Positions 1-49,020 of a stretch of 64,000 nt of DNA are shown here, piece after piece. The position numbers and the translations under genes are program-made. How positions within the stretch are numbered: the first letter of the stretch is position 1; the number at the start of each line of letters is the position of its first letter. The notes below the pieces were generated by a model that made no database searches, was not told where the DNA came from, and worked only from the letters and a program-made list of their open reading frames with translations. The stretch comes from an uncultured bacterium (GTDB lineage: Bacteria > Omnitrophota > Omnitrophia > Omnitrophales > Abzuiibacteriaceae), in assembly GCA_964387845.1 (NCBI GenBank), contig CAYLXA010000001.1, forward strand, positions 128,001 to 192,000, given 5' to 3'.

Positions 1-3000
1 GCATGCGTTCTGCCAGTTCCGGATCGCGCCGAAGCTGTTTGGGCAATGCATGATTGTTAATCCAGGCTTTCTTCCGCACATTCTGCGGCGTTGCTTGAAG
101 TCCTTCTCGGTTAAGATCACGGATTGCATTGAGAATTCTTCGTGAGAAAAATTGGTTAACGGCTTCTTGAACTGCCCGGTTTTGATTTGTACGGTTTTGA
201 ACCACATCCAGCGAAAGCCGCGATTCCCTTGCGATCGTCATAAAGCTTGTTTTGGATTTCTGGCTTGGTTTCACGCGGCTTAGCTTTTGCAGTGCGTCGA
301 GAATCTCCGAATCATAAAATTCATTCAAAGCAGCTTGAACATTGACGTCCGACCGGACCAATGCTTTGAAATCGGGAACGGACAAGCCTGCTAAACTTGC
401 GATCGTGCGTGTATTTCGAACTGTTATAGACCAATCACTTCTCAAATGCCGAAGTACGGTGCCCAGTTGGTTTGGTTTTGCCCGCCGAAGTTCGCTGCGC
501 CGCTCAGCGCGATGATTGGCCGAAAGCTCGGCCATTTCCATAAGGATGTCGCGCAATCCTTCTTTTTGCACGGAAAAAACGGCGTGCAGCCACTGGAAAT
601 CTTTTTGTAATTGTAGTGTAAAACTGCTTCCCAAAATTAGTTCGGCTACTTGCTTTTTCGCGTTATGGCTGGAATGCTGTGCCTTGCTGGCCCAAGATTT
701 TGTCCGCGGCGGATTTGTATTGGACAATCGATATAAATAGAAAGAAAAACGCCTGATTCCGCTCATTATTTGTTGGAAAGTTTCTGAACTTAATGAATAT
801 GAGTCGGAATTCATTGTAAATTTCGCATATTCATCCCGGAATTTATCTGACAGAACAGCAAAATTGCCGCTCACCTCACGCAAAACGCTCTCGGCCTCGG
901 GATAACGGCGGGCAAGATATTTCAAATTTGTTTCCACATCTTCTATCAAGCGGCTGCCAACCGCAAACAACAACTGATGGCGGATAACAAAAGAAATCCC
1001 GTCCGGCTGGCTAACAGCATGAGGTGAGACTAAATCAAGATCTTCGTGATTGCGGTGCTGGAATTTCATTCCAACCCGCTGATTGACATAAATTTCGGTT
1101 AATAAATCAAGCAACATTTCATATCCGGCTGATCCGAGAGACACTTGCCTCTCCAGCCGGTCTATAAAGCTATGCAAATGGTTAAACAGGACATCATTCA
1201 TATGAGAACGCCATTGGCGTGACTGCATCATCCACAACACCACCGGCAGAAGCTCGTCATATGTACTCTCAGACAACAATTCTCTGAATCGATTGGCTTC
1301 GCCAATAAGATTGATGATAGGCAAATGTCTTTTTGTCACATAATCTTTGATGCGTTTCTCTAGGATACTTTTGGTATTGTAGTGATCAATCGTGAGTTCA
1401 AAATCATTCCGCAGCTCGGAGCGGGCCGGGTCTTCATCTTTGAAATCTAAAGCCTCTACAGACTCATCACGCCGGATTTCTTGCTCAAATGGAGTGACAG
1501 GTTCGGCCTCCACTTTAGGCCTATGGATAGAGTCTGCGATACGCAAAACATTGACCTGCTTATTCATCGAATCGGTCAAAGTAACAGTGGCGGCAAGCCG
1601 GCCTGCATGCTGCCGGACTTGTTTTAAAACAAATATTTTCTTATCAAGGCGCCTGGCCTCGGTTTTACTCCCGCTTGTATACGTTTTTTTCACACCCGTT
1701 ACGAGATAATCAATATGGCCTTCCACGCGATTAACACGCACGATATCCAGCAACTGAATTTGCCGTAGCGGTTCAGGCAGAAAAATAGATCTTTCATCTT
1801 GGATAATCTGCGACACTTCCTGCATGAGCTGATCGAGGCTTTGTAAGGGCACTACTTCTTGTGTATAGGCGGTCCGGTTTACCACGCGCCACTTTCTTCG
1901 AAAAGTTTGAATCCGGTCTCTCAGAAGCCGAATTTCATGAAGCTTCTCGGTATTAATACTTGCTTCCAGATGACTCGGGTGCGCCTGCGTAATTGTGTGT
2001 TGAATGTCAGATTCCGGTTCAAGTGAAATGGGAGCCGTATCCCTTGATTCATCCACTTCATCCAGCATGCGGTTCATGAGCGCTTTCAGAGCGTCCGTAT
2101 TTCCCGCCGCTTGTTTAGTATCTCTCTTCCAACTTTCTCTGACGCGCGGATCAAGCACAAGCGGGCTCAAGATTGAAAACAACCTAGAAAGTAATTGAAA
2201 TAAAGTCGCAGGATCGGTTTGTTGCGCTATTTGCTCCCGCGTACCGGGGATCTTTGGCTGAAGGTCTGATAATTTCTTGAGACGGTCGCTGCTGCCTGAT
2301 AAGAACCGTCCCACCGCATCGGCCTGTTGGGCTTCCGACCTTTCTTCGGCATATCGAGGGCCAGTGTCTTTTGGAACTTCCACTCCAGCTTGTTGAGCCA
2401 ATCGATTCAGATAAGCTTTGCCTTCGCGCTCATCTCTCGCCTTCCGTAAGCGCTCATCTTCCGCGGCTTCACGTGCAATTCTCGCCTGGTCTTGTTGATG
2501 CTTAATGTCCTCCGGATCCGGGAGCTTTGGCCGTTCATCTTCCGCCCGCAATTCGGATGAGGCGCGGGATGTGTTGTCGGTTTCATTGGATATCTTTGAC
2601 CCGTCTGAGTTTGATTCTTTACGGCTGCCATCGAGGACAAAATTCAATTGGCCGCTCAAGAGATCATCGACTTGGACTTCTCCATTTCGCGGCGTACTGC
2701 TGGGATCAATGATCCGATAGACGAACCCCGGCATGAGCGGCACATCGGCATGCCGCTTATGTTTACCATCAGCGTGGCGAACCACAGAACCTACAATGAT
2801 TTTGTCAGCCGTTAAATCTGGATCTTGAAAAACATATGATACGTCTGCGGCAAAACGCTGCGATCTTCCGACCGTCAGAACGATATCGCCGGGCTCGAGT
2901 TGTGAGGCATTGTCGATCGGTTCTGCTGTAAATCCTTGAAGAACTGAGGCAATAAATGCCGAATCCATGGGAAGTGACGGACGATAAAATCGCTCGACCA

Positions 3001-3817
3001 GTGGTTCTATAATCGATTGTTTCCACAATGGAAGCTGGGACAACCATTCCTTGGGGTATCTTTGCGCAAGGTTTTTATAACCTTCCCCAATGCTTGTGTG
3101 GAGGCCAATTCCGCCAATTGTCATCGGTTCTCGCTGATTCTCATCTTGCCGCAGCTCAGAGCGGGCCGACTTCAAAAGCTCCAACACTTCTTTGATCAAC
3201 TCGCGGTCATTCTTCGGAGAGAGAGAACCTGATTGAATTTTTCTCCCGATGATACCAAATTCTGACATTCCGGCTTGCTTTTCCAAATCAAAAAAGACAC
3301 CCGCCATTTCTGGGCTGGCATCAAGGCTTTTTATTTTTCTGCTAGACTCGTGGCGACGAAGAAATCGGGTTGCTTCATCTACCAATCTCTTATCAACTAA
3401 TTTCTTTTGAGTTGTTGGGAGTGTCGAATCACCTAGATCATCCAAATAACCATAAGGATGCTCTGAAGGACGTATTGTCACATAACCAGGCTTCCATTTA
3501 CTCGGATCAAGCGGCCGACTCCGCAGTTCGGAGCGGGATTTTCTGGCTTCAAGCTTCAAGCTTCCAGCTCCAGGTTTAACTGCTTGTGGCTTGTAGCTTG
3601 CAGCTTGTGGCTTGATTGAAACTTGCCCACTCGCGGCAATTTGCGCACTGTAGGGAAGCTGAAGATTAACGTCTTTTCGGAGGCCGAGATTGAAATTAGA
3701 TTTGGTAAGCGATTCGAAGAGAATCGGGGCGTCGCCGTAAGCGACCGTACTGGTCGTTAAAACCGTTGCGACGAGAACAAGGCTAATAAATTTGAAGATA
3801 GAAGATTTTGCCGGCAA
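1..3817 (-). CDS. giant secreted protein, N-terminal ~1270 aa; the C-terminus lies beyond the window start; contains four RSELR motifs
   Basis: Hand translation of the minus strand gives one uninterrupted frame from a TTG at 3817..3815 (preceded by an in-frame TAA) down to nt 1. It is absent from the ORF track because its stop codon lies outside the window. The N-terminus MPAKSSIFKFISLVLVATVLTTSTVAYG looks like a signal peptide. There is a KPQA-type low-complexity stretch and ~55-aa tandem repeats near the window edge. The TTG start is inferred. Confidence 0.55.
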   Translation of the reverse strand, partial: MPAKSSIFKFISLVLVATVLTTSTVAYGDAPILFESLTKSNFNLGLRKDVNLQLPYSAQIAASGQVSIKPQAASYKPQAVKPGAGSLKLEARKSRSELRSRPLDPSKWKPGYVTIRPSEHPYGYLDDLGDSTLPTTQKKLVDKRLVDEATRFLRRHESSRKIKSLDASPEMAGVFFDLEKQAGMSEFGIIGRKIQSGSLSPKNDRELIKEVLELLKSARSELRQDENQREPMTIGGIGLHTSIGEGYKNLAQRYPKEWLSQLPLWKQSIIEPLVERFYRPSLPMDSAFIASVLQGFTAEPIDNASQLEPGDIVLTVGRSQRFAADVSYVFQDPDLTADKIIVGSVVRHADGKHKRHADVPLMPGFVYRIIDPSSTPRNGEVQVDDLLSGQLNFVLDGSRKESNSDGSKISNETDNTSRASSELRAEDERPKLPDPEDIKHQQDQARIAREAAEDERLRKARDEREGKAYLNRLAQQAGVEVPKDTGPRYAEERSEAQQADAVGRFLSGSSDRLKKLSDLQPKIPGTREQIAQQTDPATLFQLLSRLFSILSPLVLDPRVRESWKRDTKQAAGNTDALKALMNRMLDEVDESRDTAPISLEPESDIQHTITQAHPSHLEASINTEKLHEIRLLRDRIQTFRRKWRVVNRTAYTQEVVPLQSLDQLMQEVSQIIQDERSIFLPEPLRQIQLLDIVRVNRVEGHIDYLVTGVKKTYTSGSKTEARRLDKKIFVLKQVRQHAGRLAATVTLTDSMNKQVNVLRIADSIHRPKVEAEPVTPFEQEIRRDESVEALDFKDEDPARSELRNDFELTIDHYNTKSILEKRIKDYVTKRHLPIINLIGEANRFRELLSESTYDELLPVVLWMMQSRQWRSHMNDVLFNHLHSFIDRLERQVSLGSAGYEMLLDLLTEIYVNQRVGMKFQHRNHEDLDLVSPHAVSQPDGISFVIRHQLLFAVGSRLIEDVETNLKYLARRYPEAESVLREVSGNFAVLSDKFRDEYAKFTMNSDSYSLSSETFQQIMSGIRRFSFYLYRLSNTNPPRTKSWASKAQHSSHNAKKQVAELILGSSFTLQLQKDFQWLHAVFSVQKEGLRDILMEMAELSANHRAERRSELRRAKPNQLGTVLRHLRSDWSITVRNTRTIASLAGLSVPDFKALVRSDVNVQAALNEFYDSEILDALQKLSRVKPSQKSKTSFMTIARESRLSLDVVQNRTNQNRAVQEAVNQFFSRRILNAIRDLNREGLQATPQNVRKKAWINNHALPKQLRRDPELAERM

Positions 3818-33394: not shown

Positions 33395-34228
33395 TTATGC
33401 CACTGCGGTTTGCGAAACAATATGAACGTCTCTTTGCGGAAACGGTATTTCGACACCATCTCTTTTGAAAGTCCGGTAAACTGCCAAATTGACGGCAGCA
33501 ACGGTAGACGGGTACTGATCGGCACGCGCCCAATAACGGTAGCCAATATTAACGGAAGAATCGCCAAATTCTTTGATCCCTACCTGGGGAGCAGGTGCTT
33601 GGACCACGTTCGGATTTTGTTTCAGCACTTCCTGGATAATCGCAATTGCCTTTTCGGGATCGCTCGCGTAACTAATACCCACGATCGAATTGGAAATTTT
33701 GTTGGTGAATGAATTGTAAACAATTTCACCGACCATGTGTTTGTTGGGGATGGTAATTCGCGCGCCGTCTGCATTCACCAAAATCGTACATGGCAATTTA
33801 ATGTCCTGCACCGTGCCGGTGACATCTTTCACCGTAATCGTGTCGCCTATTGCAAACGGTCGTGCAAAAATGATGGCCAGTCCGGCCGCATAATTGGAAA
33901 GCGTGCCTTGAATTGCAAAACTCGCACCGAAGAGCGCGGCGCTCAAAGCCGCTACGAGCGGCGTAATTGTAATACCGATTTTACCGAGCGCAACGATAAC
34001 GGCAAATGCGATGACTATTAATTTGAAAATACCCGACAAAAATCGCGCAAGCGCCAAATCTACTTTCTTTTTCTCGAAAAGGCCAAGTGAGAACTTTGCG
34101 GTCCAGTTGGCAACGACAAACCCTGCGATCAATACTAAAATAGCGCCGACAAGTTCAAAGCTGTAATTCACTACGAACTCGATACTAGTATCGATTAACT
34201 TCTGAACGGCTGAAATTTCTTCCGACAT
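33395..34228 (-). CDS. mscS: small-conductance mechanosensitive channel (MscS family)
   Basis: Three TM helices plus an MscS beta-domain pattern (GDTITVKDVTGTVQDIKL...). Confidence 0.8.
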   Translation of the reverse strand: MSEEISAVQKLIDTSIEFVVNYSFELVGAILVLIAGFVVANWTAKFSLGLFEKKKVDLALARFLSGIFKLIVIAFAVIVALGKIGITITPLVAALSAALFGASFAIQGTLSNYAAGLAIIFARPFAIGDTITVKDVTGTVQDIKLPCTILVNADGARITIPNKHMVGEIVYNSFTNKISNSIVGISYASDPEKAIAIIQEVLKQNPNVVQAPAPQVGIKEFGDSSVNIGYRYWARADQYPSTVAAVNLAVYRTFKRDGVEIPFPQRDVHIVSQTAVA

Positions 34229-35932: not shown

Positions 35933-38900
35933 TTAGGCTTTGATGATGAGTTCGTGCGCATTTTGGAATTCTGCTCTTAACTCGCTTGAAAACTTGACGA
36001 TATTGAACAATCCTCTGATATCGTCGGCAGAACTTTCATCATCAATAACGCCGCGGTTTTTCATAGCAAGCGCAATCCCCCGGTCCTCTTTTAAGCCAAG
36101 CGCCTGGATAAAACCAACCTGTAGCTTCTTTTTTAAATAATGCGCCGCCTGATCGGGATATTGAAACACTTTCATTCGTTCATCGGCTTGAAAAGAAACG
36201 GCCGCGGCTCCGTCCGAAACCACCGCGACTTCATAACCTTGCGCTTTATAGTAACGCACAAGAAGCGGTGTCACGGTGCCCGCTTCGCGCGTTAAAATAT
36301 CCATCAAAATTACGCCGCGCTTTAAATGGAGATCTTGATTCGAGTCGCCGCTGATTTCAAACGTTCGGTTTAAATAATTTCTAAGTTCCGGCGTTAAAAA
36401 CAACCCCGGATCCGCATCGATTTGCCGCGCGGCTTCTCGCACGCTTGATTCCATAGTTTCTATATGCATCTCGAGCCCGTCAAACGGGTTTAGATGATCA
36501 AATCTTAACTCGGACTTGGCGCCATCACCTTTAACCAAGTAAGTGTAAATTTTCTGAAATTCATGTTCATAGCTTTCGGTAAATTTTTCTTCTTTCTCGG
36601 CCACGCGGCGATAATATTCCGAAGCTTGTCCGGTAACATACTGCCACAAGGTAAAATTTGTCTGATTTTGTTTATTAAAATCAGCCAACTGCTCTGCGTC
36701 TATTTCACCTTGCGCCTCTCCCTGGTGGCGTAGAAAAATCGGTATCTCCGGCCCTAGAAAAACTTCGGGAAAAAGCGCGGCAATTTGCCTGACGATGCTT
36801 AGGAAATCTTGGGACGGATCATTGTCTAAATTCTCTGAAATATCCTGAAGAATTTCTCGGTAGGCTTCCAAACCGAAGGCGTCCACTGGAAAATCATTTT
36901 GCTTAAAAAACTCAGCCCCGTGCGAGGCCGCTGTCTTATTCGGAACAAACAAAAGGCCATTGATCAGCGCGGAACCGTACTCCAATATTTTCTGCCTATT
37001 TTGAACAGGATCTTTTAGAAATTCTTTTAATGAAGGCAAAAACCCTTTGATTAAAATGGGCATCAATTGAATATCCAGTTCATCTGTCCCGATACGGTGA
37101 TCATGCCTTAAGTGCGGGCCCAGGATTCCGAATAAAAGAGCTGCTCCTTGCGCGGATTTTTGCGCAAGCGCCGCAGCGTTATCAAGAAAGACTTGGTCAT
37201 TGTCAGCAAATGACAAAAGTTTTTTAAGCAGCAGGCCGTCAGGTTCGGGAATTACATCATTCAAACGGCCGTCTTCATGCCCCCGCAGTTCGGAACGGTT
37301 TTCAATGGTAATCAAAACCTCTTCCTGTGCGGGGTTTTTGGTTGGAATCACCCTGACCTTAAATTCAAGTGATTCTGAAGCATCGTTCAATACAAATGTC
37401 CCGTAATCGGAACCGGCGCGCTGCCGTTCGATGGCAACATCTTTTGCTATTAACTTCACCAATGTAAAAAAGTGAAGCGCATTTCCGGCAGGTTTGGCAG
37501 TGAAATGCCTGGCAGAAATCTTGCTGTCTGAATCTTTAGACACGATTACGGTAACAACAGCACCGTTACGAATCAACCGCACAGATTTTGCCTGCTTCAA
37601 TTTGAAAACGGGTTTCAGCACATAAGATTGAACCAATTTTGAATAAGGAAGCGGTGTTTCATGGTTGGATGCGATTGACAATAAAAATCGGCCTTGATCC
37701 CGGTTCATGATCCAGAGTGCAAATTGCGCGCCCTTAAGCTCCAACCGTTCCCTTTCGGTCATCGTGCGGCTTTGGGTCAAGCGCTTCATATCCAACTTAT
37801 CAAAGCGCTCCAAGAGCCCATGGAACTTTCCGGGGTCGAGCAGCTCATCCGCGTCAACCTCGGAAAGCACAAGAAGAGTCAGTAAGTGGCCAAGCTGTCT
37901 AAATAACGGGCTTTTATCTCTAAAGTCCTCGAAAAGATTCTTCGCATCTTCAAGCAGGCTGCGGACTTCATCATAGGCAAGGCCAGATGCTGTCAAATAT
38001 CGCATTTTGCCCACCGCGCGCAAAAATTGCCCCTCTTGATCCATGGTTAATCCGACTTTATTTTCGGTTTCTGGATCATCCGGATTGATAATTTCGATGG
38101 GGTCAAGGCCTTCGCGGAAATCTTCCTCTAAAAATTTCTTCAATTCATCCGAACGTTTTCCCATTTCGATTAAAAGCTGGGATAACGCCCTTAATTCGGA
38201 ACGCTGCCCTCCGGCAGAGCCGTTTTGTGCATTATTGCGCTTCTTATAATTTGACACTTCAATAGACAAATCATTGATTTCATTGGCTAACGCTTCAACT
38301 TTAAAAATAAGCTTTCGATTTGGATTTTTTGGATCGGCGAGAATGAACGAGCCGATTTGATCAACATTTCCCCGGTTAATATCGATCTGCTGCGTAAAAA
38401 ATTGCAGTAAGGTTAAAAAATAAAACGCGTCTTGCTTTTCTAATTTGAACTTTTCAGATTTTATGACGTCGCGCTGTGCGTCTGAATCCAGATAGTAAAT
38501 TTCGACTGTATTTGTCTTTTGAACACGTTTGATTTTAATGAAGCCAATATCATCCTCTTTAAATGCCGGGTCTATGATCATTTGCTTTAATAACTGGCCA
38601 ACCTGAAACTGCCTGATCGCCAAATGAATAAAGCGGCCTTGATACTGTCTCATGCCGGCCAACAAGTATTTTGCCGCTGCCGCGATCAGCTTGTCCATCG
38701 GGTCCAGCGGCTGTCCGTTCCGTTCGGAATAATGAAATCTCATAGCTAAGCTGACCAGTTCGTGAAATATGTCGGTTTGAAAATATGTGTTGAGCTTTTC
38801 GGGCGTTCTTGCTAATTCGGTTTGAATTGTTTCGAGCTCACTTCGAAAACCATCGGCTACACTAATGTAGTGATAAGTACCCGCCGCAGAAATAGCTTGT

Positions 38901-41900
38901 GTCAAAAGCTGGTCGAAGCGCCGGTTGTGAACCAGATAAAATAGCGGCGGATAGGCACCATGCTCCAAATCAACTTGGCCAACCACATAGTCAAAGAAAT
39001 CTTTGACTGCTTTTTTTGCATCATTGTTGCCGAGCCGCATCATCACACTGTCTTTTTGCTTGACTAGTCTCTGCGTCAACAATTCTTCAATTTCAAATAA
39101 GCGCTGGCCCATCTCGGCCAAGTCGATTTCCAGTTTGCTCCATCCGCTATTTCCGATATCGCCCGATTTGGTTCGGAGTTCGGATCTTTCCGCAGGTTGT
39201 TTTTGATTATCAAACTCGGCGGTCAATTTAAACGATCTAGCATGTTCGGCGTCGAATGCTTCGAGCATCGGGTCGGCGTATTCGAAAAGCCAGCTAAAAT
39301 CTTTTTCTGCCTCGGGAGTTTTAAAACCAAAGTCTTCTGTAAAAATAGAGAAATCAACCTCAGGCCGGCCGCTCAATAAAAATGTAAGACTAAGCGGATT
39401 TTCTATCTCACGATTACCGTTGATTTCGTCCAGCCATGCTTGAAATAATGCGGCTAGGCGTATTTTCCTTTTATCCAAACTGCCGTCCGGACGCATGATA
39501 TGCCTTAAATTCTTCAGTTCGTTTGCAACCGCTTCGCGCCGCTCTTCGTCTGAAAATGATTGAATATAATCATCAAAGTTGCCGGGTGGCCCGATCTCCT
39601 TCAGAACTGCTTCTGCCAATACTACGAATTGCTCATAATGAGGCTGGGTGGCATACACAACATAACGCCGAAACCAATCCTTCATTTTGGGATCTTGATA
39701 ATAATCAAGAAGCCTTTTCATCGAAGGATCCTTTTGAGCCGACTCATAAAATGTCTCCCCTTTAAGGATCATCTTCCTGTTCAGGTCTTGGTCGAATCGA
39801 TAGCTGCCGTCCGGCTGTATCGCCAAACTAATATTGTTGCGGTGAATCTGCCGATATTTTTTAAATTGCACTGCCCGGGGATTATTCGTTTTTTCGGGAT
39901 AATGAATGAATTTTGCCACATTAATAAAGTACCGAATATTCATCAGCCGGAATTTTCTGGGAAGCCAAGCTGTATAATCATAATCGATGGCAGCCAAGGC
40001 ACTGTTGGGTTCGTCCTTAGATTGCGGCGCCTTCATCAGAACAATTTCAAAGGGTTTCAGCAAAGACCGCCCGTTCAGAGTCACTTCATTGCCGATTGCC
40101 AAACGGGACCCTTTGCTAATCAAACTGATAAATTCCCGGATCAAATTGCGATCCTCTTCGGTTTCGGCATATTTCAGATCTTGATCCAGGATAAAGCGAA
40201 GTTCTTCCGCCAGTCTGTCCATTTTCTCCGAATTCCCCGGCGGAACCCGGAGCGCAAACTGATCAAGCTTGCTGAAGCCAATAGACAAATCGACTGGATC
40301 ATACGGAACTTGCGGTGCCGGATCTTCAAATAGGCGATATTGCAAATCCCGCTTAAACCACCGGACAACGGGGAAATAATAAAATAATGCGGCAATCATC
40401 GATAGCACAGACCCAAAAACCGAGGCCCAAACTATCCGCTTCTTCAGAATTTGCCGTTTTGCATGCTTAAGCCGCTTCTGGCGCTCAAGCAGATTATTCA
40501 AAGCTTGTTTAGCAAGTGAAACGATGTGATGATCGCTATCCTCCGGGCCGAATTCAAACTGAATAACTTGCCCGCGCTTTGTTTCAAGTGCCGCGTATCC
40601 GGATTTTCCATTCTCAGGCAAAAGCACAAACGGTTTTTCCCATGGCCCATGGAAAACAAACGGCTCTTCGTTCGGTAATCTGAGAATCAATTTCTCAATC
40701 TCCCCGGGCCGTTCGGCTTGGCGCCTTTCTTCATCCAATCGTTGTTCGTTATTCCGCCAATCCCTTTTTATTTGCTGAACTTTTCCTAACGCGTCCGCCC
40801 TTTTGGCAGCCGTGGTCTCATCATCATGGAGCACATTTTGGTATTCTGTGTGGCCGAACAGTTTTGTCAGCAAATGATCACGGGATTGAGCGGTCGGAAG
40901 GCCATAAACAACCTCCGCCACGTGAAGCACTCCGCTTTCAATTGCGCTCCGGAGCGAATTTAACTTTGATGGCGTAGCATCAAGCTCTTTTCCTCTCGCC
41001 GGAATTAGATGAAACGGCAAATGACTTTTCCCGGAATCTAAGAATAAACTGATAGATCGTAGTTTTTTTCCGTTTAATTCAATTTCTTTTTTAAAGTTAA
41101 TTTGAATAGTTGATGGCTTGCCAGAATGATCCACGATGATTCGAGTGTGGCTGGAAAAATCGTTCGCCACACCGATAATTGTGTCGGCTATTTCTTTTTC
41201 AGGAACGAGCGGCCGAAAACCTAAATGAGTCCATATTTGAATAATACGTGGATCACGACTTTCGCCTTCTAATTTTAGAACGCTTCCGTTCTTAGACGAT
41301 AATTGATTCTGTGCTATGAATTCGATTTTGCCGTGAAGTTTATGATTCAACCTCGTTGGGTCTATGGTTTCAAGCCGCACCACTTCAGTGCTTGCGCGAA
41401 GCTCTGATCGCGGCGTAGTTTGATTAGTTGCAATTCTGGTAAAGACGAGATAATGCCAATAGCGCCCTGATTTGTAAAAAGCCGGGATGGCGCGCGATCC
41501 TGTAGAACTTTGCCATTCTTCAGGATGAATAAATTCGCGAAATGCTTTTAATATGGAATCGCCCGCTCCATCAAAATCGAACTCTAGCTCGTCAAAGGGG
41601 TACTCAAAAGTAATTTGGCCGCCCTCCGGAATCCTGGCAATTAACTGCCGAAACCACTCTTGCGAGAGCGAATCGACGTAGCGGTCGATATTTCCAAAAC
41701 GGACATGACGATAAGCCGGCTCTTGAAATAACAAGGCGGGATCCCGGATATCAACCCGGCGGATTTCTATTTGGTCACCGAGACGTAAGAATTTTTTGGC
41801 TCGTTTCGAAAAAGCCTCCACGAAAAACGAGCGGTCTGAGAAAATAAAATGATCATCACCGCTGATTTGTTTAAAAAAGTTCACGGCGTTGGTTCCTGAA

Positions 41901-44900
41901 GCCAGATCCAAAACCGGCAGTCTTCTTAATTTTGGATCATTTGAGTTCAAATAAACCGGCACTTCGTCGTCAAAATGTTTCGCCGAAAATGCCATCACGG
42001 CTGCAAACTCGCCTAACTTCTGCAAAAATAATCTTGCTTCGGGTAAATTTTCAAGATAAGCACGCTCCGAAAATTGAATGACTCTCTCTAATTCATCGTA
42101 AATATATTCAAAATCAGAAAACATTGGAAGCGATCGCACAACTTCCGGCCAAAACGTATCAAAATTCAAATAGTAATGATATTGAAATATCATTTGAGCC
42201 AAATATCCGTTGGCTTGCCGAAGGATTCGGCCACGCAAATCTTTGTAATCCTCGATTCCGAACTTTTCTAAAAGCTCGGTGGGCCACGGCTTTGAAACTC
42301 TACGGCTGCTGATTTGATGAAAAACGTGCAAGCTCAAAAACCCGACGGTAGAAGCAACTACAACCGGCCACATCAAGCTACGAAGCTCAGAACGAATCCA
42401 TTTATCCGATAAGTCATGCTGGATTTCGCGGAACTGTTCGCGCCATTGAATCAGCTCGGCGTTTCGTTTGCGTGCATCATCCGCAATTGCTTGAAGCGGT
42501 TTTGGCACCATGCTTTGAACATAATATTGAATATCCAATTGAGCAAACCAGTTCCCAAAACGATATCTTTCACCATCCGGAATTTGACTCAGGTTAAAGT
42601 TTTCATGTTTTAATTTGGAAATAGCGAGCTGCCCTGCCAAGCGAGTCGATAAAGCTCCTGAAAAATAAAGCTGGAGCAACTTTGTTAAATGAAAAAAGTA
42701 AACAAAGTTAAGCCCATTGTTGCCAAATAAAACAGGGTCAAATGCAAACGCATCCTCTCCGCCTTTTTCAGGCCTAAAGTAGAGATCGATTAAGTTCGAA
42801 TTAAAAGAAGCATCTTTGACGTGGGTTATTCCGATTTCCCGCCATATACGCACATCCAGATCACCAATTCCCAACGCGTGGCGTAAACTTCCAAATAAAT
42901 AAACTCGCGGATATAAATCCGATTCAGAATAGCTTTCTTTAGCGCGTACAAAATCGAGTGCCTTTTTCAACTCATCAACCAAAAGAATTGAATTTTGAAA
43001 ATGTTCTAAATTAGTATAAGGATGCGTCAGGTGAAAATACAGCCGATGAAGCATATTGTGGACAAAACTCACGCCATTGATTTCTTCAAAAAGCCGGAGA
43101 TCTGCGGGAAGCACTCTTAGGCGTGGAGACTTTTCTTTGTTCCAACTGCGGATCAGCTGTTCAATCTCAGAATTGATTTGGATGTAGTTTTCTGATGCGC
43201 CCGATTCGAGATCTGGTTTGGCTAGGTCTTTTGATAACTGGAATAACTGATCCTCCATCGACATAATTTTCATGAAAAAATCAAAATCATCATCTGTTAA
43301 AGATCTATGGATGCTTTTCTGAATTTGCTTCAGAAAATAAATCGTATTGTCGAGGAGAATTTTGTGCGCTGCATCCTGCGGTATGTCAAAATGATCGAAC
43401 ATTTTTTGCGCCATTTTTTCAGCGGTTGGATAGAAAAGCGGCTGACCCAATTCATTCATTCTGAGTTCAGAACGGCGAGCAGTCTTCAAGAAACCTGATG
43501 CACCTGCCAACACTTTGCCTGCTTCAGGTAAACTTAATCTTCGAAGGAGCAATGGTTTCACGTTCTTCGCGGCTTTTCGTCTAGCGACTAAATACAAGAC
43601 ACCTTCAAATTCGGTTGCCGCCTCTTTTAAAGTCAGTTCTCGAAGCGGTCCGTCAATACCGTACTTTTCCCAACTCGCGCTTCGGCTTAAGGGGAGGCCA
43701 AAAACCTGAACGTCGATGTTTCGCCGTCTGAAGAGATTGACTAATTCGGCATTTGTCTTGACGCCGCGCGGATTAAGGCTGGATTTGGTTGCGTAAAGCA
43801 GTACGGAATTTTGAACAACGACCGAAGCGCCCGGGCTCATATTTGCCAAAACTTCTCCCGCAACTTTTTGAGCATCAACGTAATTCAATAAATTTGAAAT
43901 GACAATGGTGTCAAATTGAGAATATAAATGCGGCGGACTTAGCTGAGAAGAAGGCTTGCCCTCACGAAGAACCAAATCGATTGCATGGCGATCCTCCGGG
44001 CTCATACTCTCGATCCGCTCAACATCCGCCCGCACAGTCAAAACGTTACCCTTCTGCTCAATATCCTTGGGTGGGCGGAGAGCAAGCGCCACGATTTTTT
44101 TCTTTGGATACATTACAGCTGACAAAGGATTGCCCCCATCCCCCAATTCTAAAATTCGATCCCCTAAACCGCCGGATCGTTCTAACGCTGAGAAAACAGT
44201 TGCTAAATCGCCTCGAAATGTGACATCTTCGTCCCTATAAAAATTCCGCCATAGAAATTCACGGCCGAGATTGGTCAATTCCAGCTCAGAGGTCTTGCCC
44301 ACCACACTGCCTTGAAACACGGACGACAAAGACACAGCCGCTCGATTGCCGTCCTGCATCTGTAAACTTAAATTTCCCTCAAAAGAAGAAGCGTGGATGG
44401 TTATTTTGATTGTTTTTTTATTCTCATCGTCAAATTCCAGAAAATAACTTTCGCTCAAACTTCCTCCGGTTGCGATTTTTTTCGAAAAAGGTTTTTCCTT
44501 GGTATAAAAAGAAATGTTTTTTTGAATCAGGCGGACAAATTTCTGTACTTCTTCCGGCACATCACCGATGGTTTTGAGATCACCTGTTTTAAAAGTTCCC
44601 TCGGCCGAGCCAACAAAAACGAAACCGGTTTCATACTGCGTAAAAAACTGAAATCGCGAGGCCTTCTCTGCCTGAGTTTCATTGGGAACTACTCGAATGT
44701 TGTACCAATCGCCGCTGACAGGATGATAAACCAATAATAAAAATCCATGGCCATTTAATTCGTCTGCAAAAAATAAGTCGCCAATTCTTGGGTTCTGTGG
44801 ATCGGGCTTTCTTCTGCTTTCAAAACTGCCCAAATAGCCGGCGGCCTGCAGGCGCGCTATCAGACGAATGGCGGCAGGGCTAAATGTTTCGCTTTGTTCG

Positions 44901-45286
44901 CGCAATCTTTCATCGGATAGGGCCCTAAAAATAAATTGACGCTTGTCGGTTCTTCGCCGGTAACGCGCAATAGAAAAGTCTTTTAAAAATTCATCAGCCG
45001 TGAGCGCTTTGCCGTTATATTTTTTAAGAAATCTGGAAAGTCTTTCAACGTCTTTCTTTAAAATGGAAATCCGCGAAGCCTGGTTTGCCAGCGCGCTTGT
45101 CCGCAATTCAGAACGGACAATAGCCGGATTTAAGTTCCGGAAGGAACGGCTCTTTAAATAACTTGCGGCTTTTTGAAAGAAGGCGGTGGCAGACGGAATA
45201 TCACTGTACGCAATGGTGCTTGTGAAGGTAAAACTCAGCAGGGTTGTGAGGGCAATGGTTTTGAATAAAGCGGACTTTAATTTCAC
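35933..45286 (-). CDS. 3117-aa giant secreted/membrane protein with seven RSELR/KSELR motifs and two Rossmann/methyltransferase-like motif-I regions
   Basis: Single uninterrupted ORF. Signal peptide MKLKSALFKTIALTTLLSFTFTSTIAYS. Two central hydrophobic helices (LMWPVVVASTVGFLSLHVF; IVWASVFGSVLSMIAALFYYFPVV). ILELGDGGNP and VLDLASGTNAV resemble SAM-MTase motif I. Confidence 0.85.
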   Translation of the reverse strand: MKLKSALFKTIALTTLLSFTFTSTIAYSDIPSATAFFQKAASYLKSRSFRNLNPAIVRSELRTSALANQASRISILKKDVERLSRFLKKYNGKALTADEFLKDFSIARYRRRTDKRQFIFRALSDERLREQSETFSPAAIRLIARLQAAGYLGSFESRRKPDPQNPRIGDLFFADELNGHGFLLLVYHPVSGDWYNIRVVPNETQAEKASRFQFFTQYETGFVFVGSAEGTFKTGDLKTIGDVPEEVQKFVRLIQKNISFYTKEKPFSKKIATGGSLSESYFLEFDDENKKTIKITIHASSFEGNLSLQMQDGNRAAVSLSSVFQGSVVGKTSELELTNLGREFLWRNFYRDEDVTFRGDLATVFSALERSGGLGDRILELGDGGNPLSAVMYPKKKIVALALRPPKDIEQKGNVLTVRADVERIESMSPEDRHAIDLVLREGKPSSQLSPPHLYSQFDTIVISNLLNYVDAQKVAGEVLANMSPGASVVVQNSVLLYATKSSLNPRGVKTNAELVNLFRRRNIDVQVFGLPLSRSASWEKYGIDGPLRELTLKEAATEFEGVLYLVARRKAAKNVKPLLLRRLSLPEAGKVLAGASGFLKTARRSELRMNELGQPLFYPTAEKMAQKMFDHFDIPQDAAHKILLDNTIYFLKQIQKSIHRSLTDDDFDFFMKIMSMEDQLFQLSKDLAKPDLESGASENYIQINSEIEQLIRSWNKEKSPRLRVLPADLRLFEEINGVSFVHNMLHRLYFHLTHPYTNLEHFQNSILLVDELKKALDFVRAKESYSESDLYPRVYLFGSLRHALGIGDLDVRIWREIGITHVKDASFNSNLIDLYFRPEKGGEDAFAFDPVLFGNNGLNFVYFFHLTKLLQLYFSGALSTRLAGQLAISKLKHENFNLSQIPDGERYRFGNWFAQLDIQYYVQSMVPKPLQAIADDARKRNAELIQWREQFREIQHDLSDKWIRSELRSLMWPVVVASTVGFLSLHVFHQISSRRVSKPWPTELLEKFGIEDYKDLRGRILRQANGYLAQMIFQYHYYLNFDTFWPEVVRSLPMFSDFEYIYDELERVIQFSERAYLENLPEARLFLQKLGEFAAVMAFSAKHFDDEVPVYLNSNDPKLRRLPVLDLASGTNAVNFFKQISGDDHFIFSDRSFFVEAFSKRAKKFLRLGDQIEIRRVDIRDPALLFQEPAYRHVRFGNIDRYVDSLSQEWFRQLIARIPEGGQITFEYPFDELEFDFDGAGDSILKAFREFIHPEEWQSSTGSRAIPAFYKSGRYWHYLVFTRIATNQTTPRSELRASTEVVRLETIDPTRLNHKLHGKIEFIAQNQLSSKNGSVLKLEGESRDPRIIQIWTHLGFRPLVPEKEIADTIIGVANDFSSHTRIIVDHSGKPSTIQINFKKEIELNGKKLRSISLFLDSGKSHLPFHLIPARGKELDATPSKLNSLRSAIESGVLHVAEVVYGLPTAQSRDHLLTKLFGHTEYQNVLHDDETTAAKRADALGKVQQIKRDWRNNEQRLDEERRQAERPGEIEKLILRLPNEEPFVFHGPWEKPFVLLPENGKSGYAALETKRGQVIQFEFGPEDSDHHIVSLAKQALNNLLERQKRLKHAKRQILKKRIVWASVFGSVLSMIAALFYYFPVVRWFKRDLQYRLFEDPAPQVPYDPVDLSIGFSKLDQFALRVPPGNSEKMDRLAEELRFILDQDLKYAETEEDRNLIREFISLISKGSRLAIGNEVTLNGRSLLKPFEIVLMKAPQSKDEPNSALAAIDYDYTAWLPRKFRLMNIRYFINVAKFIHYPEKTNNPRAVQFKKYRQIHRNNISLAIQPDGSYRFDQDLNRKMILKGETFYESAQKDPSMKRLLDYYQDPKMKDWFRRYVVYATQPHYEQFVVLAEAVLKEIGPPGNFDDYIQSFSDEERREAVANELKNLRHIMRPDGSLDKRKIRLAALFQAWLDEINGNREIENPLSLTFLLSGRPEVDFSIFTEDFGFKTPEAEKDFSWLFEYADPMLEAFDAEHARSFKLTAEFDNQKQPAERSELRTKSGDIGNSGWSKLEIDLAEMGQRLFEIEELLTQRLVKQKDSVMMRLGNNDAKKAVKDFFDYVVGQVDLEHGAYPPLFYLVHNRRFDQLLTQAISAAGTYHYISVADGFRSELETIQTELARTPEKLNTYFQTDIFHELVSLAMRFHYSERNGQPLDPMDKLIAAAAKYLLAGMRQYQGRFIHLAIRQFQVGQLLKQMIIDPAFKEDDIGFIKIKRVQKTNTVEIYYLDSDAQRDVIKSEKFKLEKQDAFYFLTLLQFFTQQIDINRGNVDQIGSFILADPKNPNRKLIFKVEALANEINDLSIEVSNYKKRNNAQNGSAGGQRSELRALSQLLIEMGKRSDELKKFLEEDFREGLDPIEIINPDDPETENKVGLTMDQEGQFLRAVGKMRYLTASGLAYDEVRSLLEDAKNLFEDFRDKSPLFRQLGHLLTLLVLSEVDADELLDPGKFHGLLERFDKLDMKRLTQSRTMTERERLELKGAQFALWIMNRDQGRFLLSIASNHETPLPYSKLVQSYVLKPVFKLKQAKSVRLIRNGAVVTVIVSKDSDSKISARHFTAKPAGNALHFFTLVKLIAKDVAIERQRAGSDYGTFVLNDASESLEFKVRVIPTKNPAQEEVLITIENRSELRGHEDGRLNDVIPEPDGLLLKKLLSFADNDQVFLDNAAALAQKSAQGAALLFGILGPHLRHDHRIGTDELDIQLMPILIKGFLPSLKEFLKDPVQNRQKILEYGSALINGLLFVPNKTAASHGAEFFKQNDFPVDAFGLEAYREILQDISENLDNDPSQDFLSIVRQIAALFPEVFLGPEIPIFLRHQGEAQGEIDAEQLADFNKQNQTNFTLWQYVTGQASEYYRRVAEKEEKFTESYEHEFQKIYTYLVKGDGAKSELRFDHLNPFDGLEMHIETMESSVREAARQIDADPGLFLTPELRNYLNRTFEISGDSNQDLHLKRGVILMDILTREAGTVTPLLVRYYKAQGYEVAVVSDGAAAVSFQADERMKVFQYPDQAAHYLKKKLQVGFIQALGLKEDRGIALAMKNRGVIDDESSADDIRGLFNIVKFSSELRAEFQNAHELIIKA

Positions 45287-45476: not shown

Positions 45477-46547
45477 ATGGACCATACGCATCATCAAAAA
45501 ACAAACGGATCTGAATGCTGCCATCATTCGGAGCAGGCTCGCCGGAAAGCGCCGTGGTATCACAATAAGCTGACAATCATTTTGCTAGGCACTGCCCTGC
45601 TTTATGGCGTGTCTTTTATTTTTCAGCCTCTTCTTGCATTTCGCGAGTCATTTGACAGTTATTTGAAAATCATCGCCATTCCGATGCTCATTGGGCTTCT
45701 CTTGGGCGGCGTGATCGATTACTACATCCCGCAGGAATATGTCTCAAAATATTTAGCACGCACCACGAAACGCACTGTTTTTTACGCAACAGGCCTCGGA
45801 TTTCTGATGAGCGCCTGCAGCCACGGTATTTTGGCACTTTCCATGGAACTTCATAAAAAAGGCGCATCAGGCCCTGCGGTTGTGAGCTTTCTTTTAGCAA
45901 GCCCGTGGGCCAATTTGCCGGTCACTTTTCTTTTGATCGGATTTTTCGGGTGGAAAGGGTTTTTGATTATCTTGGCCGCATTTCTAGTTGCGATTACCAC
46001 AGGTCTCGCGCTTCAACTTTTAGACAGTCGGGGCCTGATTGAAAAGAACCGGCATACTTCTGCGGTGAACTCGGAATTTTCAATTTTGAAAGATATGAAA
46101 CGGAGATTTTCCGAATATGAGTGGACTTTCTCCAATTTATCCAAGGACCTGCGCGGCATCGGAAAAGGCTCTTGGGAGCTTTCGGAAATGATTTTATGGT
46201 GGATTTTAATCGGACTGATTCTCGCGAGCCTGACATCTGCGTTTGTGCCGCACGGAATTTTCCAGAAATATTTCGGGCCGACCTTGCTTGGCTTAGTGGC
46301 TACTTTGCTTTTGGCCACTATTTTTGAAGTTTGCTCGGAAGGCACATCGCCTTTGGCGTTTGAAATTTATAAACAAACGGGCGCATTCGGCAACGCGTTT
46401 GTTTTCTTAATGGGCGGCGTGGTAACGGATTACACCGAAATCGGGCTTTTGTGGATTAATCTTGGAAAACGAACTGCGCTTTGGACACTGGCGTTATCAA
46501 TTCCGCAGGTGTTTTTGATTGGCTGGGCGCTCAATATACTTTTCTAG
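45477..46547 (+). CDS. predicted permease (DUF318-like multi-TM protein) with a Cys/His-rich N-terminus
   Basis: 356 aa with ~8 TM segments. N-terminal CCHH cluster. Confidence 0.6.
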   Translation: MDHTHHQKTNGSECCHHSEQARRKAPWYHNKLTIILLGTALLYGVSFIFQPLLAFRESFDSYLKIIAIPMLIGLLLGGVIDYYIPQEYVSKYLARTTKRTVFYATGLGFLMSACSHGILALSMELHKKGASGPAVVSFLLASPWANLPVTFLLIGFFGWKGFLIILAAFLVAITTGLALQLLDSRGLIEKNRHTSAVNSEFSILKDMKRRFSEYEWTFSNLSKDLRGIGKGSWELSEMILWWILIGLILASLTSAFVPHGIFQKYFGPTLLGLVATLLLATIFEVCSEGTSPLAFEIYKQTGAFGNAFVFLMGGVVTDYTEIGLLWINLGKRTALWTLALSIPQVFLIGWALNILF

Positions 46548-47416
46548 CCGATCCGGAGCCGGACGGTTTCCTGTTTACCGTCTTTCTCGATCACAATGCT
46601 GGTGGGCTTAATTTCAATGATCTTCGTATGGCCCACTTGATCGCCGGGGCGCCAGATTTTTCCATTAATCAAAACAACCGGGTCGGAAGCATCATACATA
46701 ATGCCTTCCAGCACTAAATCTTCATGAGGCGCAGATTCAGCCCATGTCTTGAAAGGATTACGGCCGAATTCCCGGAACCGTGTCTTGCCTGCTTTTCGCA
46801 ATTCAACCGACAATTGGCCTTGATCCATATAAATCAGCTTTTCGTCATTCTCCGGAACAAAAACGGATACCGTCAGTGGCCCCCGGAGAAAATCGCTTTC
46901 GGGATTAGGCGGTGAAAACCGGAATTCGTCAACCCGCATGACGGCTTGATCCAACTTTCCCAGTTGTGAAAGAAATAGCGCGACATCCTGATAACTACCG
47001 CGGATCGTCATATCGATCGGAATCCGCGATAAATTCGGAAGCAGTTTTTTCTCGCTTTCATTTAAATCGGTTTTTGCCCTGGGTGAAATAGAATCAAATT
47101 GCACATTAAAGCGTTTGCCGGTGCTTGTGATTTGTTCGATGTAGGTCGCAACATTATTTCCTGACGTAAACTTAGCGAGCTCTTCTTTTAATTCTGCATT
47201 CGCGGCGGGTTCATTCAGCCGGTCCAATTGCCAGACTTCCTCGCGGTAATGATCCAGCTGGCGGCGGGTCTCGTAATAACCACTTTTTGCCTTGTCCACG
47301 CGAAGCGCCATAACACCGACTAGTGCAAGCATCGCGCACCCGATGACGCCGATAGCGCTCATTGGAATATGCTTGTGCCCGATTTTGATATCAATTTTCA
47401 TGTCTGAAAACTTCAA
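46544..47416 (-). CDS. fused PilO-like / PilP-like pilus assembly protein
   Basis: TM helix, then a coiled coil, then a PilO-type block (IDMTIRGSYQDVALFLSQLGKLDQAVMRVDEF). The C-terminus has a PilP/GspC-like beta-domain (VLINGKIWRPGDQVGHTKIIEIKPTSIVI). Confidence 0.5.
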   Translation of the reverse strand: MKFSDMKIDIKIGHKHIPMSAIGVIGCAMLALVGVMALRVDKAKSGYYETRRQLDHYREEVWQLDRLNEPAANAELKEELAKFTSGNNVATYIEQITSTGKRFNVQFDSISPRAKTDLNESEKKLLPNLSRIPIDMTIRGSYQDVALFLSQLGKLDQAVMRVDEFRFSPPNPESDFLRGPLTVSVFVPENDEKLIYMDQGQLSVELRKAGKTRFREFGRNPFKTWAESAPHEDLVLEGIMYDASDPVVLINGKIWRPGDQVGHTKIIEIKPTSIVIEKDGKQETVRLRIG

Positions 47417-49020
47417 ATCGCCTCTCCCAATATTGAAAAAGTGACTGATTTTTCATTCCGGTCAGACTCGGCCAAAGTAGGTTTTCGAAAAACCGGGCCT
47501 TCAATCTGCTCCAGTGATTTCGAGAGGAGCCCCTGCTGACTGTCGACCGGGAAACTGCCTTTAATGATAAACAAGCCTCTCTGATAAGAGAATTCGGATA
47601 AAGTCACTTCTCTCGGAAATGCTTGAGATAACTCCTGAAAAACATCCTCCCAGTAAGGTTCTGAGGAAAAAACTCCGGAGATCAGTGTTTTCACCTGCAT
47701 GCTTTTCTGACGGATTGCTTTCACTTTTTGCGCTTCTTCATATCCCGGCTGCAGGTTCGCAATTTGCAAATGTAAAGACTTTGTCTTATCTGAGATGGTA
47801 ATGGATTGCCAGGCCAGACTTGAAAACAGTAAAACAAAAGCGGTCAAAGCGGCAATGGCTGTTTGCCGGTACGAAAAGAATTTAACCGCGGAGTTCCCCA
47901 TCTTGAGCAAATCGGGAAGCCACGGCTTTTTTAAATTATGCCTATCTAAAATAATGCTGATAGGACGGTAAAAACCGTTCAAATCGTCTTCACGGAGTTT
48001 GTCGGAAATTTCAATGTCCTGGAAAAAATAAACGGGCTTAACGGGGACTTGGAGAGTTTGTTCCACAAATTGAATAAACCCCTTAAGTCGGCTTCCGCCG
48101 CCTGTGAGAAAGATACGTTCAATTCCTTCCCCGTGTTCCTGGGAGTAAAAATCAAAAGAACGCCGGAGTTCACCGGTTAATTTTTGTAAAACGGGCCGGA
48201 TGAGCGGATATAATTTTGAAGCTTCGATTTTGCCGGCAATCAAATTTTCATTTTCGGCACCCAAAAATACGCTCTCATGCCGTGCCCGATCGGCCTCTTC
48301 CATGGTTAGCGCAATGCGTCCTTTATCAGTCACGATAGGCTGCGTGAGCGCCTGGCTCAATAATTCGCCGCCGAAAGAAATTTTGCGCAGAAAATCAAGC
48401 CGGCCGCCCGCATAAAGCGCGATTTCCGCAATTTTATGGCCAATATCAACCACTGTTACCAAATGCCGCGTCGACTGTGCGAAGGCATACGGCAAATGAT
48501 CGACTTCGAAAGCTGCATTCGCCAATTCAAAAGAACTGCAGCCGGATTCGCGGAGAATGCCGGCCAATGTCTCATAAACCTTGACGGGAAGAGCTGTTAC
48601 TAAAACTGTCTGTCTAAGGTCCTTTTTTTGACCCGGCATAGGTACGATTTTGTAATCTAGTTTCGCTTCTTCGATGGCAAACGGGAGTTCATCTTTTACT
48701 TTCCATTTAATTGTGTCGACCAAGTCTTTTTGAGATATGTTCGGAACGACAAAAGACCCGAAATAAGTTTGGAGGCTGTTGGTTACTAAAAAAACGGTAT
48801 GGCGGCTCAAATCAAACCCGGACAAAGCTTTCGCGGCTGCTTGCTTCAGCGTTTCCCTGGCCTGAGCAACATCCTCGTAAGGCGGAACCGGAATGCTCCG
48901 TGCCTCCAGAAGATGGAACCGCTTTGCGGCCGTTTTTATCTGGACAATTTTGACAGAGGAAGAAGCGAACTCGATTGCCAAGAAGAAGCGTTCGCGGTTT
49001 TCGTTGGGCCAATTCAGCAT
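47413..49020 (-). CDS. fused PilM (actin-like ATPase fold) - PilN pilus assembly protein
   Basis: N-terminus LAIEFASSSVKIVQIK, a PilM-type start. After ~370 aa there is a TM helix plus a PilN/GspL-like periplasmic region. Confidence 0.65.
   Translation of the reverse strand: MLNWPNENRERFFLAIEFASSSVKIVQIKTAAKRFHLLEARSIPVPPYEDVAQARETLKQAAAKALSGFDLSRHTVFLVTNSLQTYFGSFVVPNISQKDLVDTIKWKVKDELPFAIEEAKLDYKIVPMPGQKKDLRQTVLVTALPVKVYETLAGILRESGCSSFELANAAFEVDHLPYAFAQSTRHLVTVVDIGHKIAEIALYAGGRLDFLRKISFGGELLSQALTQPIVTDKGRIALTMEEADRARHESVFLGAENENLIAGKIEASKLYPLIRPVLQKLTGELRRSFDFYSQEHGEGIERIFLTGGGSRLKGFIQFVEQTLQVPVKPVYFFQDIEISDKLREDDLNGFYRPISIILDRHNLKKPWLPDLLKMGNSAVKFFSYRQTAIAALTAFVLLFSSLAWQSITISDKTKSLHLQIANLQPGYEEAQKVKAIRQKSMQVKTLISGVFSSEPYWEDVFQELSQAFPREVTLSEFSYQRGLFIIKGSFPVDSQQGLLSKSLEQIEGPVFRKPTLAESDRNEKSVTFSILGEAI

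Follow-up and report, generated by a model that had tools for sequence, protein, structure and literature searches.

Two giant proteins encoded in the 64-kb window examined here (the whole 64,000-nucleotide stretch, positions 128,001 to 192,000 of contig CAYLXA010000001.1 from an uncultured Omnitrophota bacterium) carry multiple copies of a pentapeptide, [RK][SA]ELR, which very probably acts as a delimiter between the modules of mosaic giant proteins and stands at almost every junction. The proteins are termed G (3117 amino acids [aa]; window positions 35933 to 45286, minus strand) and P (partial; positions 1 to 3817, minus strand). Homologues found in this analysis are labeled P0002 to P0075, L085 is the locus of P0007, and L090 is a locus syntenic to the first 15.5 kb of the window. 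The reiteration of the motif is real and highly non-random, and it extends to giant proteins beyond the window.

Nine x-SELR motifs were identified in G (seven RSELR, one KSELR, and one SSELR) and five in the available part of P (four RSELR and one SSELR); at each occurrence of SELR in the two proteins, the residue before it is R, K or S. The coordinates given in the original prediction were all correct. Its count for G held for KSELR and six RSELR but missed a seventh (aa 605, nt 43460-43474, RRSELRMNE); it also overlooked A at position 2 and did not recognize K as tolerated at position 1. The two proteins, their leaders and all motif copies are as follows.

35933..45286, minus strand: G, 3117 aa, with signal-like leader, nine x-SELR, two internal hydrophobic segments and no Cys (from the open reading frame [ORF] list and its translation)
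45116..45286, minus strand: leader of G (aa 1-57), a hydrophobic signal-like segment ending TSTIAYS|D, then about 30 aa before the first RSELR
45101..45115, minus strand: RSELR copy 1 of G, aa 58, closing the leader
43460..43474, minus strand: RSELR copy 2 of G, aa 605, between methyltransferase-like module 1 and the next module
42380..42394, minus strand: RSELR copy 3 of G, aa 965, directly followed by a hydrophobic segment (aa 971-989)
41396..41410, minus strand: RSELR copy 4 of G, aa 1293, starting 9 aa past the last methyltransferase strand
39173..39187, minus strand: RSELR copy 5 of G, aa 2034
38189..38203, minus strand: RSELR copy 6 of G, aa 2362, between two mutually homologous modules
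37283..37297, minus strand: RSELR copy 7 of G, aa 2664
36503..36517, minus strand: KSELR of G, aa 2924, preceding the C-terminal module
35975..35989, minus strand: SSELR of G, aa 3100, 13 aa before the C terminus
1..3817, minus strand: P, the N-terminal 1272 aa, continuing past the window start; leader of the same type as that of G, no Cys
3536..3817, minus strand: leader of P (aa 1-94), which stops at the first RSELR
3521..3535, minus strand: RSELR copy 1 of P, aa 95
3149..3163, minus strand: RSELR copy 2 of P, aa 219
2546..2560, minus strand: SSELR of P, aa 420
1409..1423, minus strand: RSELR copy 3 of P, aa 799
485..499, minus strand: RSELR copy 4 of P, aa 1107

Based on amino acid composition, the 4389 residues of G and P would be expected to contain 0.015 copies of RSELR and 0.2 of SELR; 11 and 14, respectively, were observed. 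Shuffling gave a similar picture, with [RK][SA]ELR found 8 times in G (0.03 in shuffles) and 4 times in P (0.016), and shuffled sequences never held more than one or two copies. A six-frame scan of the window confined [RK]SELR to the reading frames of G and P, which agrees with the earlier claim that the other window proteins lack it. However, only ∼0.014 copies would be expected in their 14,343 residues, and their absence there therefore says little.

Codon usage differed among copies, with Arg encoded by CGT, CGC, CGA or AGA, Ser by TCT, TCC, TCA or AGC, and Leu by five different codons. Across 43 sites from five genes, each of the five codons carried nucleotide-level information only in its first two positions, and the flanks were uninformative. 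RSELR is thus under selection at the peptide level, as had been claimed from the codon variation in the window.

A full HMMER search of G aa 1-1200 was run against 1.84 billion cluster representatives. A word-indexed homology search was uninformative, as G matched only itself, and neither P nor G 960-1330 recovered even itself. The HMMER search returned 73 matches, many of them giant (2 to 7.6 thousand aa) and each sharing one module with G. The first 1300 aa of G comprise three modules, each with its own set of homologues; two further modules were recognized by their similarity to each other, and another at the C terminus.

43556..45094, minus strand: module 1 of G, aa 65-577, common to P0002-P0006, P0009 and P0010
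42425..43423, minus strand: module 2 of G, aa 622-954, no annotation, with a counterpart at P0008 aa 437-786
41423..42298, minus strand: module 3 of G, aa 997-1288, which combines a helical domain with the class I S-adenosylmethionine (SAM)-methyltransferase fold (AlphaFold, Foldseek)
37298..39172, minus strand: paired modules of G, aa 2039-2361 and 2367-2663, bounded by RSELR and homologous over their full length
35936..36502, minus strand: C-terminal module of G, aa 2929-3117

The C-terminal part of module 1 resembles small methyltransferases, and its homologues yielded only sub-threshold Pfam methyltransferase matches. Module 2 carries a GS...DxD motif, judged by eye, which may mark it as a candidate nucleotidyltransferase. 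Module 3 has more than 20 homologues.

The homology blocks at aa 65-577, 622-954 and 999-1301 fit between the motifs at 58, 605, 965 and 1293. Approximately 12.6% of the first 1300 aa of G lies outside these blocks, and all four motifs fall there (P ∼2.5e−4 under uniform placement). The only alignment that clearly crossed a motif was that of G with P0007, in which RSELR-1293 aligned with RSELR-4802 while the surrounding linker had diverged and carried an indel. An AlphaFold model of G 960-1330, built from a 17-sequence alignment (mean predicted local distance difference test [pLDDT] score, 74.6), contained a confident helical domain and Rossmann fold at model residues 38-329 (G 997-1288). Both motifs lay in flanks with pLDDT of <50, the second starting nine residues past the last strand. 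Comparison with the PDB using Foldseek identified the fold of module 3 as a class I SAM-dependent methyltransferase. A single-sequence model of G 1990-2960 reached a pLDDT of only 38 and was not used as evidence.

In the second half of G, the paired modules aligned at residues 23-300 of one and 11-286 of the other (E = 2e−6 in a small database; 20% identity). The end-to-end homology of the stretches 2034-2366 and 2362-2668 indicates that an RSELR-to-RSELR stretch is a unit. Typically, the motif stood ∼3 to 12 residues ahead of the start of the next module. The possibility that motifs fall inside folded cores was thus not borne out, as homology blocks, the AlphaFold model and the Pfam domains of the L090 giant (below) all place them outside cores, at module boundaries.

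The motif is conserved in related giants. P0007 (5947 aa) contains 13 copies of x[SA]ELR, 12 of which fit [RK][SA]ELR; in P0037 (2995 aa) the figures are 14 and 12, and in the L090 giant (4307 aa, of which 3140 were available) 10 and 8. Among 41 copies from four proteins, E-L-R was invariant (41/41), position 1 was R or K in 36, and position 2 was S in 31 and A in 10. Motif pairs 14 to 41 aa apart bracket short low-complexity spacers, and a hydrophobic, signal-like segment directly follows 3 to 4 of the 41 copies. With 5 to 14 internal copies per protein, the motif does not match a C-terminal sorting signal of the LPXTG, PEP-CTERM or similar type.

The L090 locus (JGI 3300028648, Ga0268299_1000257) derives from a sister genome and shares gene order with window positions 1-15,500; over the PFOR and RND genes beside the giant gene, the two sequences agree at ∼80% of nucleotides. 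Where the window has P, L090 has a giant gene (L090:11979-21398) in which the leader (L090:11979-12350) and the motif are kept, and the modules are unrelated to those of P. The giant-gene locus is therefore hypervariable, as its flanks are ∼80% identical DNA and its modules completely different. Pfam domains in the L090 giant included an epimerase, a DHQ synthase, an RNA polymerase alpha C-terminal domain and an HTH_3. The epimerase begins 9 aa past KSELR-519, the RNA polymerase alpha domain stops 10 aa before RSELR-2500, and HTH_3 stops 9 aa before RAELR-3097; in no case did a motif fall inside a Pfam domain (P ∼0.1).

Two further questions raised with the original prediction were whether ordinary proteins carry the motif at similar density and whether orthologous giants lack it. 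No copies were found in the other genes of the window or in those at the three related loci (the contigs of P0007, P0037 and L090), a comparison of low power, and both the homologous giants and the giant at the syntenic position retain the motif. Scans of genomes and metagenomes with G gave no match. With an alignment of the methyltransferase core, two loci only were recovered, neither with a giant gene, and a scan by PurU neighbors returned 80 loci, none closer than 64% identity and none with an RSELR-rich ORF. The best PurU matches (59 to 64% identity) came from metagenome-assembled genomes labeled Bacteroidetes or Verrucomicrobia, and one homologue carries the label Chlamydiota; the species-representative genomes contained no close relative, and the few weak indications favor the PVC group.

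In other giants sharing modules with G, the most over-represented k-mer was a different short peptide (RSExR, SE[AS]R, SGFGA, SSSP or DxAML). P0067 contains 7 copies of [RK]SE.R (0.2 expected), SE[AS]R is reiterated in P0009, and GFGA occurs 8 to 9 times in P0011 and P0015 (0.13 expected). SSSP or ASSP was found 15 times in P0059 (0.23 expected), and [DN].AML 9 times in P0045 (0.13 expected) and 5 times in P0066 (0.06 expected); as exact k-mers, SSSP occurred 7 times against 0.08 expected and DEAML 5 times against 0.004.

These peptides occupy equivalent positions. Immediately behind the final strand of the methyltransferase module that these proteins share, G reads TTP-RSELR, P0007 SD-RSELR, P0014 GS-DRAML, P0066 AA-DAAML, P0070 S-DHAMA and P0059 RR-SSSP, and the stand-alone 367-aa homologue P0012 terminates where the other proteins carry the junction motif. 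The motif of each lineage was also found ahead of this module. In P0015, Pyridoxal_deC, Cons_hypoth698 and HATPase_c each fill one GFGA-to-GFGA interval, and each interval with a Pfam match corresponds to one domain (counting the overlapping Pyridoxal_deC and Beta_elim_lyase as one).

Most users of DxAML-type motifs (among P0013, P0014, P0016, P0024, P0045, P0056, P0066, P0069 and P0070) share two end domains, an N-terminal one of approximately 'LSPxFNPPxLKGxxVxPDNPFxFDFIxD...' and a C-terminal one of 'GGIDLNPxN...GFxPVIxNIxP'. These proteins seem to form a second mosaic family with its own conserved ends. In an RSExR-using genome (the 215,799-bp contig with P0075), three giant genes encoding >5125, 4469 and >3617 aa lie within ∼33 kb, with a Y1 transposase gene between giant genes.

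Giants that are otherwise unrelated follow one N-terminal plan, in which a signal-like segment ending TST[IV]AY[SG]D is followed by a pro-region of 30 to 90 aa and then the first RSELR. The TST[IV]AY[SG]D ending is common to G, P and the L090 giant, and the leaders of G and P0037 share 48% identity over aa 1-71. In G and P the segments, judged by eye and hydropathy, end at AY[SG]|D. The earlier description of both proteins as secreted agrees with these segments, but they were recognized only in that way, and G has two internal hydrophobic segments (aa 971-989, directly after RSELR-965, and aa 1617-1641). No Cys is present in G (3117 residues), P (1272) or the L090 giant (3140 available), against 0.72% Cys in the other window proteins; P0009 (3573 aa) and P0011 (7439 aa) likewise have none. 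A lack of Cys may fit passage of the chain unfolded through the envelope or periplasm.

Domain searches with G and P gave nothing above threshold in Pfam or NCBIfam, nothing with PADLOC, and no meaningful match to PDB sequences; two sub-threshold matches of P were at chance level. No internal repetition could be detected in either protein except the one neighboring module pair in G, so that the motif does not belong to any repeated domain. The C-terminal ∼150 aa of G weakly resemble the C termini of P0037, P0007, P0011, P0015, P0009 and P0067 (G with P0037, E = 0.002 in a very small database). The proteins sharing this stretch use different junction motifs, and all end in alanine (-AA, -KA, -NA or -SA). 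It may represent a terminal domain that defines the family, or else a tail that some factor recognizes. A protein identical to G is present in both an NCBI assembly and a Logan assembly; the Logan contig begins ∼350 nt beyond the stop of G, indicating that assemblies break near this gene. Neighboring genes gave no continuation of P past the window, and beyond the opposite end only a 1.5-kb contig was recovered.

Two other proteins of the window can be set beside G and P. A 546-aa protein of the endonuclease/exonuclease/phosphatase family (28208-29848, plus strand) has a signal peptide cleavage context, GA|DSIPDLF, that resembles those of G (YS|DIPSATAFF) and P (YG|DAPILFESL). At 16298-22060 (plus strand), a 1920-aa conventional repetitive surface protein with InlB-type B-repeats and PKD domains carries no RSELR, and the motif is thus not general to large exported proteins.

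Strict selection on the peptide, its sharing among giants within a genome and between related genomes despite exchange of their cargo, and its replacement by chemically unrelated motifs elsewhere together point to a trans-acting reader whose evolution is coupled to that of the motif. The most economical candidate, to which we give about an even chance, is a lineage-specific endoprotease that cuts the giant precursor at [RK][SA]ELR, making it a polyprotein. In this reading G and P are mosaics whose modules fold independently and in many cases look like enzymes, strung behind a conserved leader of the Sec type, and [RK]-[SA]-E-L-R sits as a delimiter in the short linker at almost every junction, kept by peptide selection while the modules are exchanged between genomes. 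A lineage-specific trans-acting factor, co-evolving with the motif, would read it; as a site-specific endoprotease, this reader could cut the exported precursor into separate proteins, possibly after the invariant final Arg. The residue after the motif is mostly small (S, A, N or T), which makes a cut at this position plausible. That the motif is cut, at which bond, that the chain is exported and which protease acts are what we infer here; the enrichment, the peptide-level selection, the boundary position, the conservation in related and syntenic giants and the equivalent motifs elsewhere are observed. Short linkers, paired motifs around the 14- to 41-aa spacers, signal-like segments after some motifs, the end of stand-alone P0012 at a junction, and a GFGA motif devoid of modifiable side chains all fit cleavage.

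Several observations weigh against this proposal. No protease domain was identified in G, P, P0007, P0037 or the L090 giant, by Pfam match or as an HExxH or GDSGG-like motif, and no protease gene is conserved beside the RSELR-type giants. One motif lies 13 residues (G) and 9 residues (P0007) from the C terminus, in an apparent terminal helix, where a cut would release almost nothing. The giant homologues P0002, P0003, P0010 and P0047 have no detectable reiterated motif, and the motif patterns of other lineages were defined after seeing the data. Pfam coverage of the L090 giant is low, and the finding that motifs never fall inside its domains is therefore a weak test when taken alone.

Of the other explanations, the main rival to cleavage is an uncleaved docking site, in which a chaperone, translocation component or scaffold binds each linker, for example keeping modules unfolded or threading the chain through the envelope. 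The exposed linkers, the absence of Cys, the signal-like leaders and the lack of a protease are all compatible with docking, closely spaced pairs would raise avidity, and a motif 9 to 13 aa from the C terminus, pointless for cleavage, could still be bound. However, a shift of partner specificity between lineages (RSELR, GFGA, SSSP, DxAML) whose modules are exchangeable is hard to explain, the end of P0012 exactly at the motif position better suits a point of separation, and no candidate docking partner is conserved in the three neighborhoods; we consider docking unlikely. Residues R, E, L and R favor helices, and each of the two AlphaFold models places a motif at a predicted helix start or close to one, at low confidence. 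The motif could accordingly be a purely structural element (a helix start or hinge), passed on together with a shared type of linker and with no reader acting on it in trans. A linker would not need E-L-R to be invariant in 41 of 41 copies with freely varying flanks, its wholesale replacement by chemically unrelated motifs would be unexpected, and the linkers themselves vary in length and composition, so that this explanation appears quite improbable.

The original prediction had proposed a shared post-translational event. Its polyprotein-junction version is well supported, but modification of Ser (phosphorylation or glycosylation) or of Arg (methylation or ADP-ribosylation) has little probability. 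Such a role would draw on an exposed motif containing Ser and Arg, on the methyltransferase fold of module 3 and on the weak methyltransferase similarity of module 1. Nevertheless, Ala replaces Ser in 10 of the 41 copies (RAELR), the methyltransferase modules are cargo absent from other RSELR-type giants, and the equivalent GFGA of P0011 and P0015 lacks a modifiable side chain, making a modification site less likely. An element acting in DNA or RNA (a recombination site for in-frame module exchange, an RNA processing site or an internal translation signal), with the peptide as a by-product, is very improbable. It would suit the rapid turnover of modules at a fixed locus, and 105-nt RNA windows at the sites were slightly more stable than controls (−25.6 versus −22.3 kcal/mol), a small difference that GC-rich Arg codons would give. 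Third codon positions and flanks are almost without information, and the Arg, Ser and Leu codons are drawn from different families (CGN/AGR, TCN/AGY, CTN/TTR). A DNA-level repeat or recombination site was rejected on the restriction of information to codon positions 1 and 2 and the absence of any detectable nucleotide-level repeat. For chance, an artefact of composition or a side effect of tandem repeats that escaped detection, only the general risk of a pattern chosen after seeing the data speaks; the excess is ∼700-fold, was replicated in three further proteins from other samples, and occurs with no detectable internal repetition apart from one module pair, leaving this explanation a negligible probability.

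Extending the processed-polyprotein proposal, we tentatively suggest, as a somewhat less than even prospect, that uncultivated bacteria write sets of proteins as one giant ORF with a lineage-specific punctuation code of 4 to 5 residues (RSELR, RSExR, SE[AS]R, SGFGA, SSSP or DxAML), which a co-evolving protease would read after export. As only the punctuation and leader would be constrained, cargo modules could be swapped in frame at a fixed locus. If so, the giant genes would be hypervariable delivery cassettes for effectors or enzymes, and the motifs would supply the missing cleavage map for the giant proteins of Omnitrophota-like bacteria. An invariant boundary motif offers a concrete, testable segmentation for structure prediction, per-module annotation and the interpretation of proteomics, and a starting point in the search for the enzyme that recognizes it. 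Its retention through complete cargo exchange at a syntenic locus points to an unusual form of gene evolution by in-frame module exchange.

Viral polyproteins yield many proteins from one ORF, with a short junction consensus that differs between lineages. The giants described here likewise have a short, lineage-variable consensus at the junctions of a multi-module ORF; however, G and P are encoded by cellular chromosomal genes and have a Sec-type leader, and no cognate protease was identified in or beside the ORF. Chlamydial Pmps, from a PVC-group bacterium, reiterate the tetrapeptides GGA[ILV] and FxxN in a repetitive beta-helix passenger domain. They too are large exported proteins with a short peptide repeated many times, whereas the motif of G and P lies between unrelated modules, with no autotransporter domain found by Pfam or NCBIfam.

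MARTX toxins release effector modules at small-Leu-small sites in unstructured segments (PMC2900308), and their effector repertoires differ between strains through recombination, as far as the reference list of PMC6315884 indicates. G and P resemble MARTX and the clostridial glucosylating toxins as very large exported proteins with exchangeable modules and a short site between them, at which cleavage would occur. They differ in having no cysteine protease domain (no Pfam match) and no Cys, no RTX repeats, and no adjoining type I secretion genes, with N-terminal signal-like leaders instead; their motif is a strict, lineage-variable five-residue one, and many of the modules are of housekeeping-enzyme type. 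The P97/P102 adhesins of Mycoplasma hyopneumoniae are cleaved at S/T-X-F|X-D/E, by a protease then unknown (PMC3322551). They share with G and P a short linear motif recurring in disordered regions of large surface proteins, but motif, family and organism are unrelated, the adhesin motif is loose, and these proteins are adhesins rather than strings of enzyme modules. The RSELR giants lack the defining features of the MARTX, viral polyprotein and adhesin families, having no cysteine protease domain, no RTX repeats and no homology to them.

Giant mosaic proteins in uncultivated PVC-type bacteria have remained puzzling, and the main preprint describing them suspects cleavage into smaller products, with no cleavage points known. 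The Omnitrophota multi-enzyme or Archaeovorin-type giants combine, like those analyzed here, methyltransferase, HATPase, epimerase-like and further enzyme domains into mosaics that also carry signal peptides and transmembrane helices, and P0011 and P0015 (7.4 to 7.6 thousand aa) look like members of this class. In contrast to Archaeovorin-type giants of at least 10 thousand aa, G has 3117 aa and the giant syntenic to P 4307, and Pfam detected neither a C39 or S8 peptidase domain nor a SecA-like one in G. The preprints on giant Omnitrophota proteins do not mention junction motifs, and literature searches for RSELR, or for polyprotein together with Omnitrophota, returned no relevant report, RSELR matching only the software name varSelRF. 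Polyprotein-type junction sites are known; for such motifs in giant mosaic proteins, no report was found in the literature searched.

No protease gene was found in the 64-kb window. The only protease seen near these giants was a 247-aa trypsin-like serine protease encoded 2 kb upstream of P0007 on the opposite strand (L085:7150-7893, minus strand), which is not conserved at the other loci. A protease internal to G or P was rejected, as neither has catalytic motifs or Cys. Upstream of G and on the same strand lies an operon resembling those for type II secretion or type IV pili (46544-55088, minus strand), which encodes GspE, GspF, pseudopilins, and PilM-like and PilO-like proteins, the last with a weak CdsD_C match. 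A functional link between G and this operon was dropped, as P0037, P0007 and the L090 giant sit in unrelated housekeeping neighborhoods. The neighboring RND/MFP/OEP genes in the window are of the heavy-metal efflux type. Elsewhere in the window, the ORFs of an AsmA-like protein and an MscS protein (32448-33533 and 33395-34228, minus strand) overlap by 139 nt as listed; for the 361-aa ORF, the TTG start has probably been set too far upstream.

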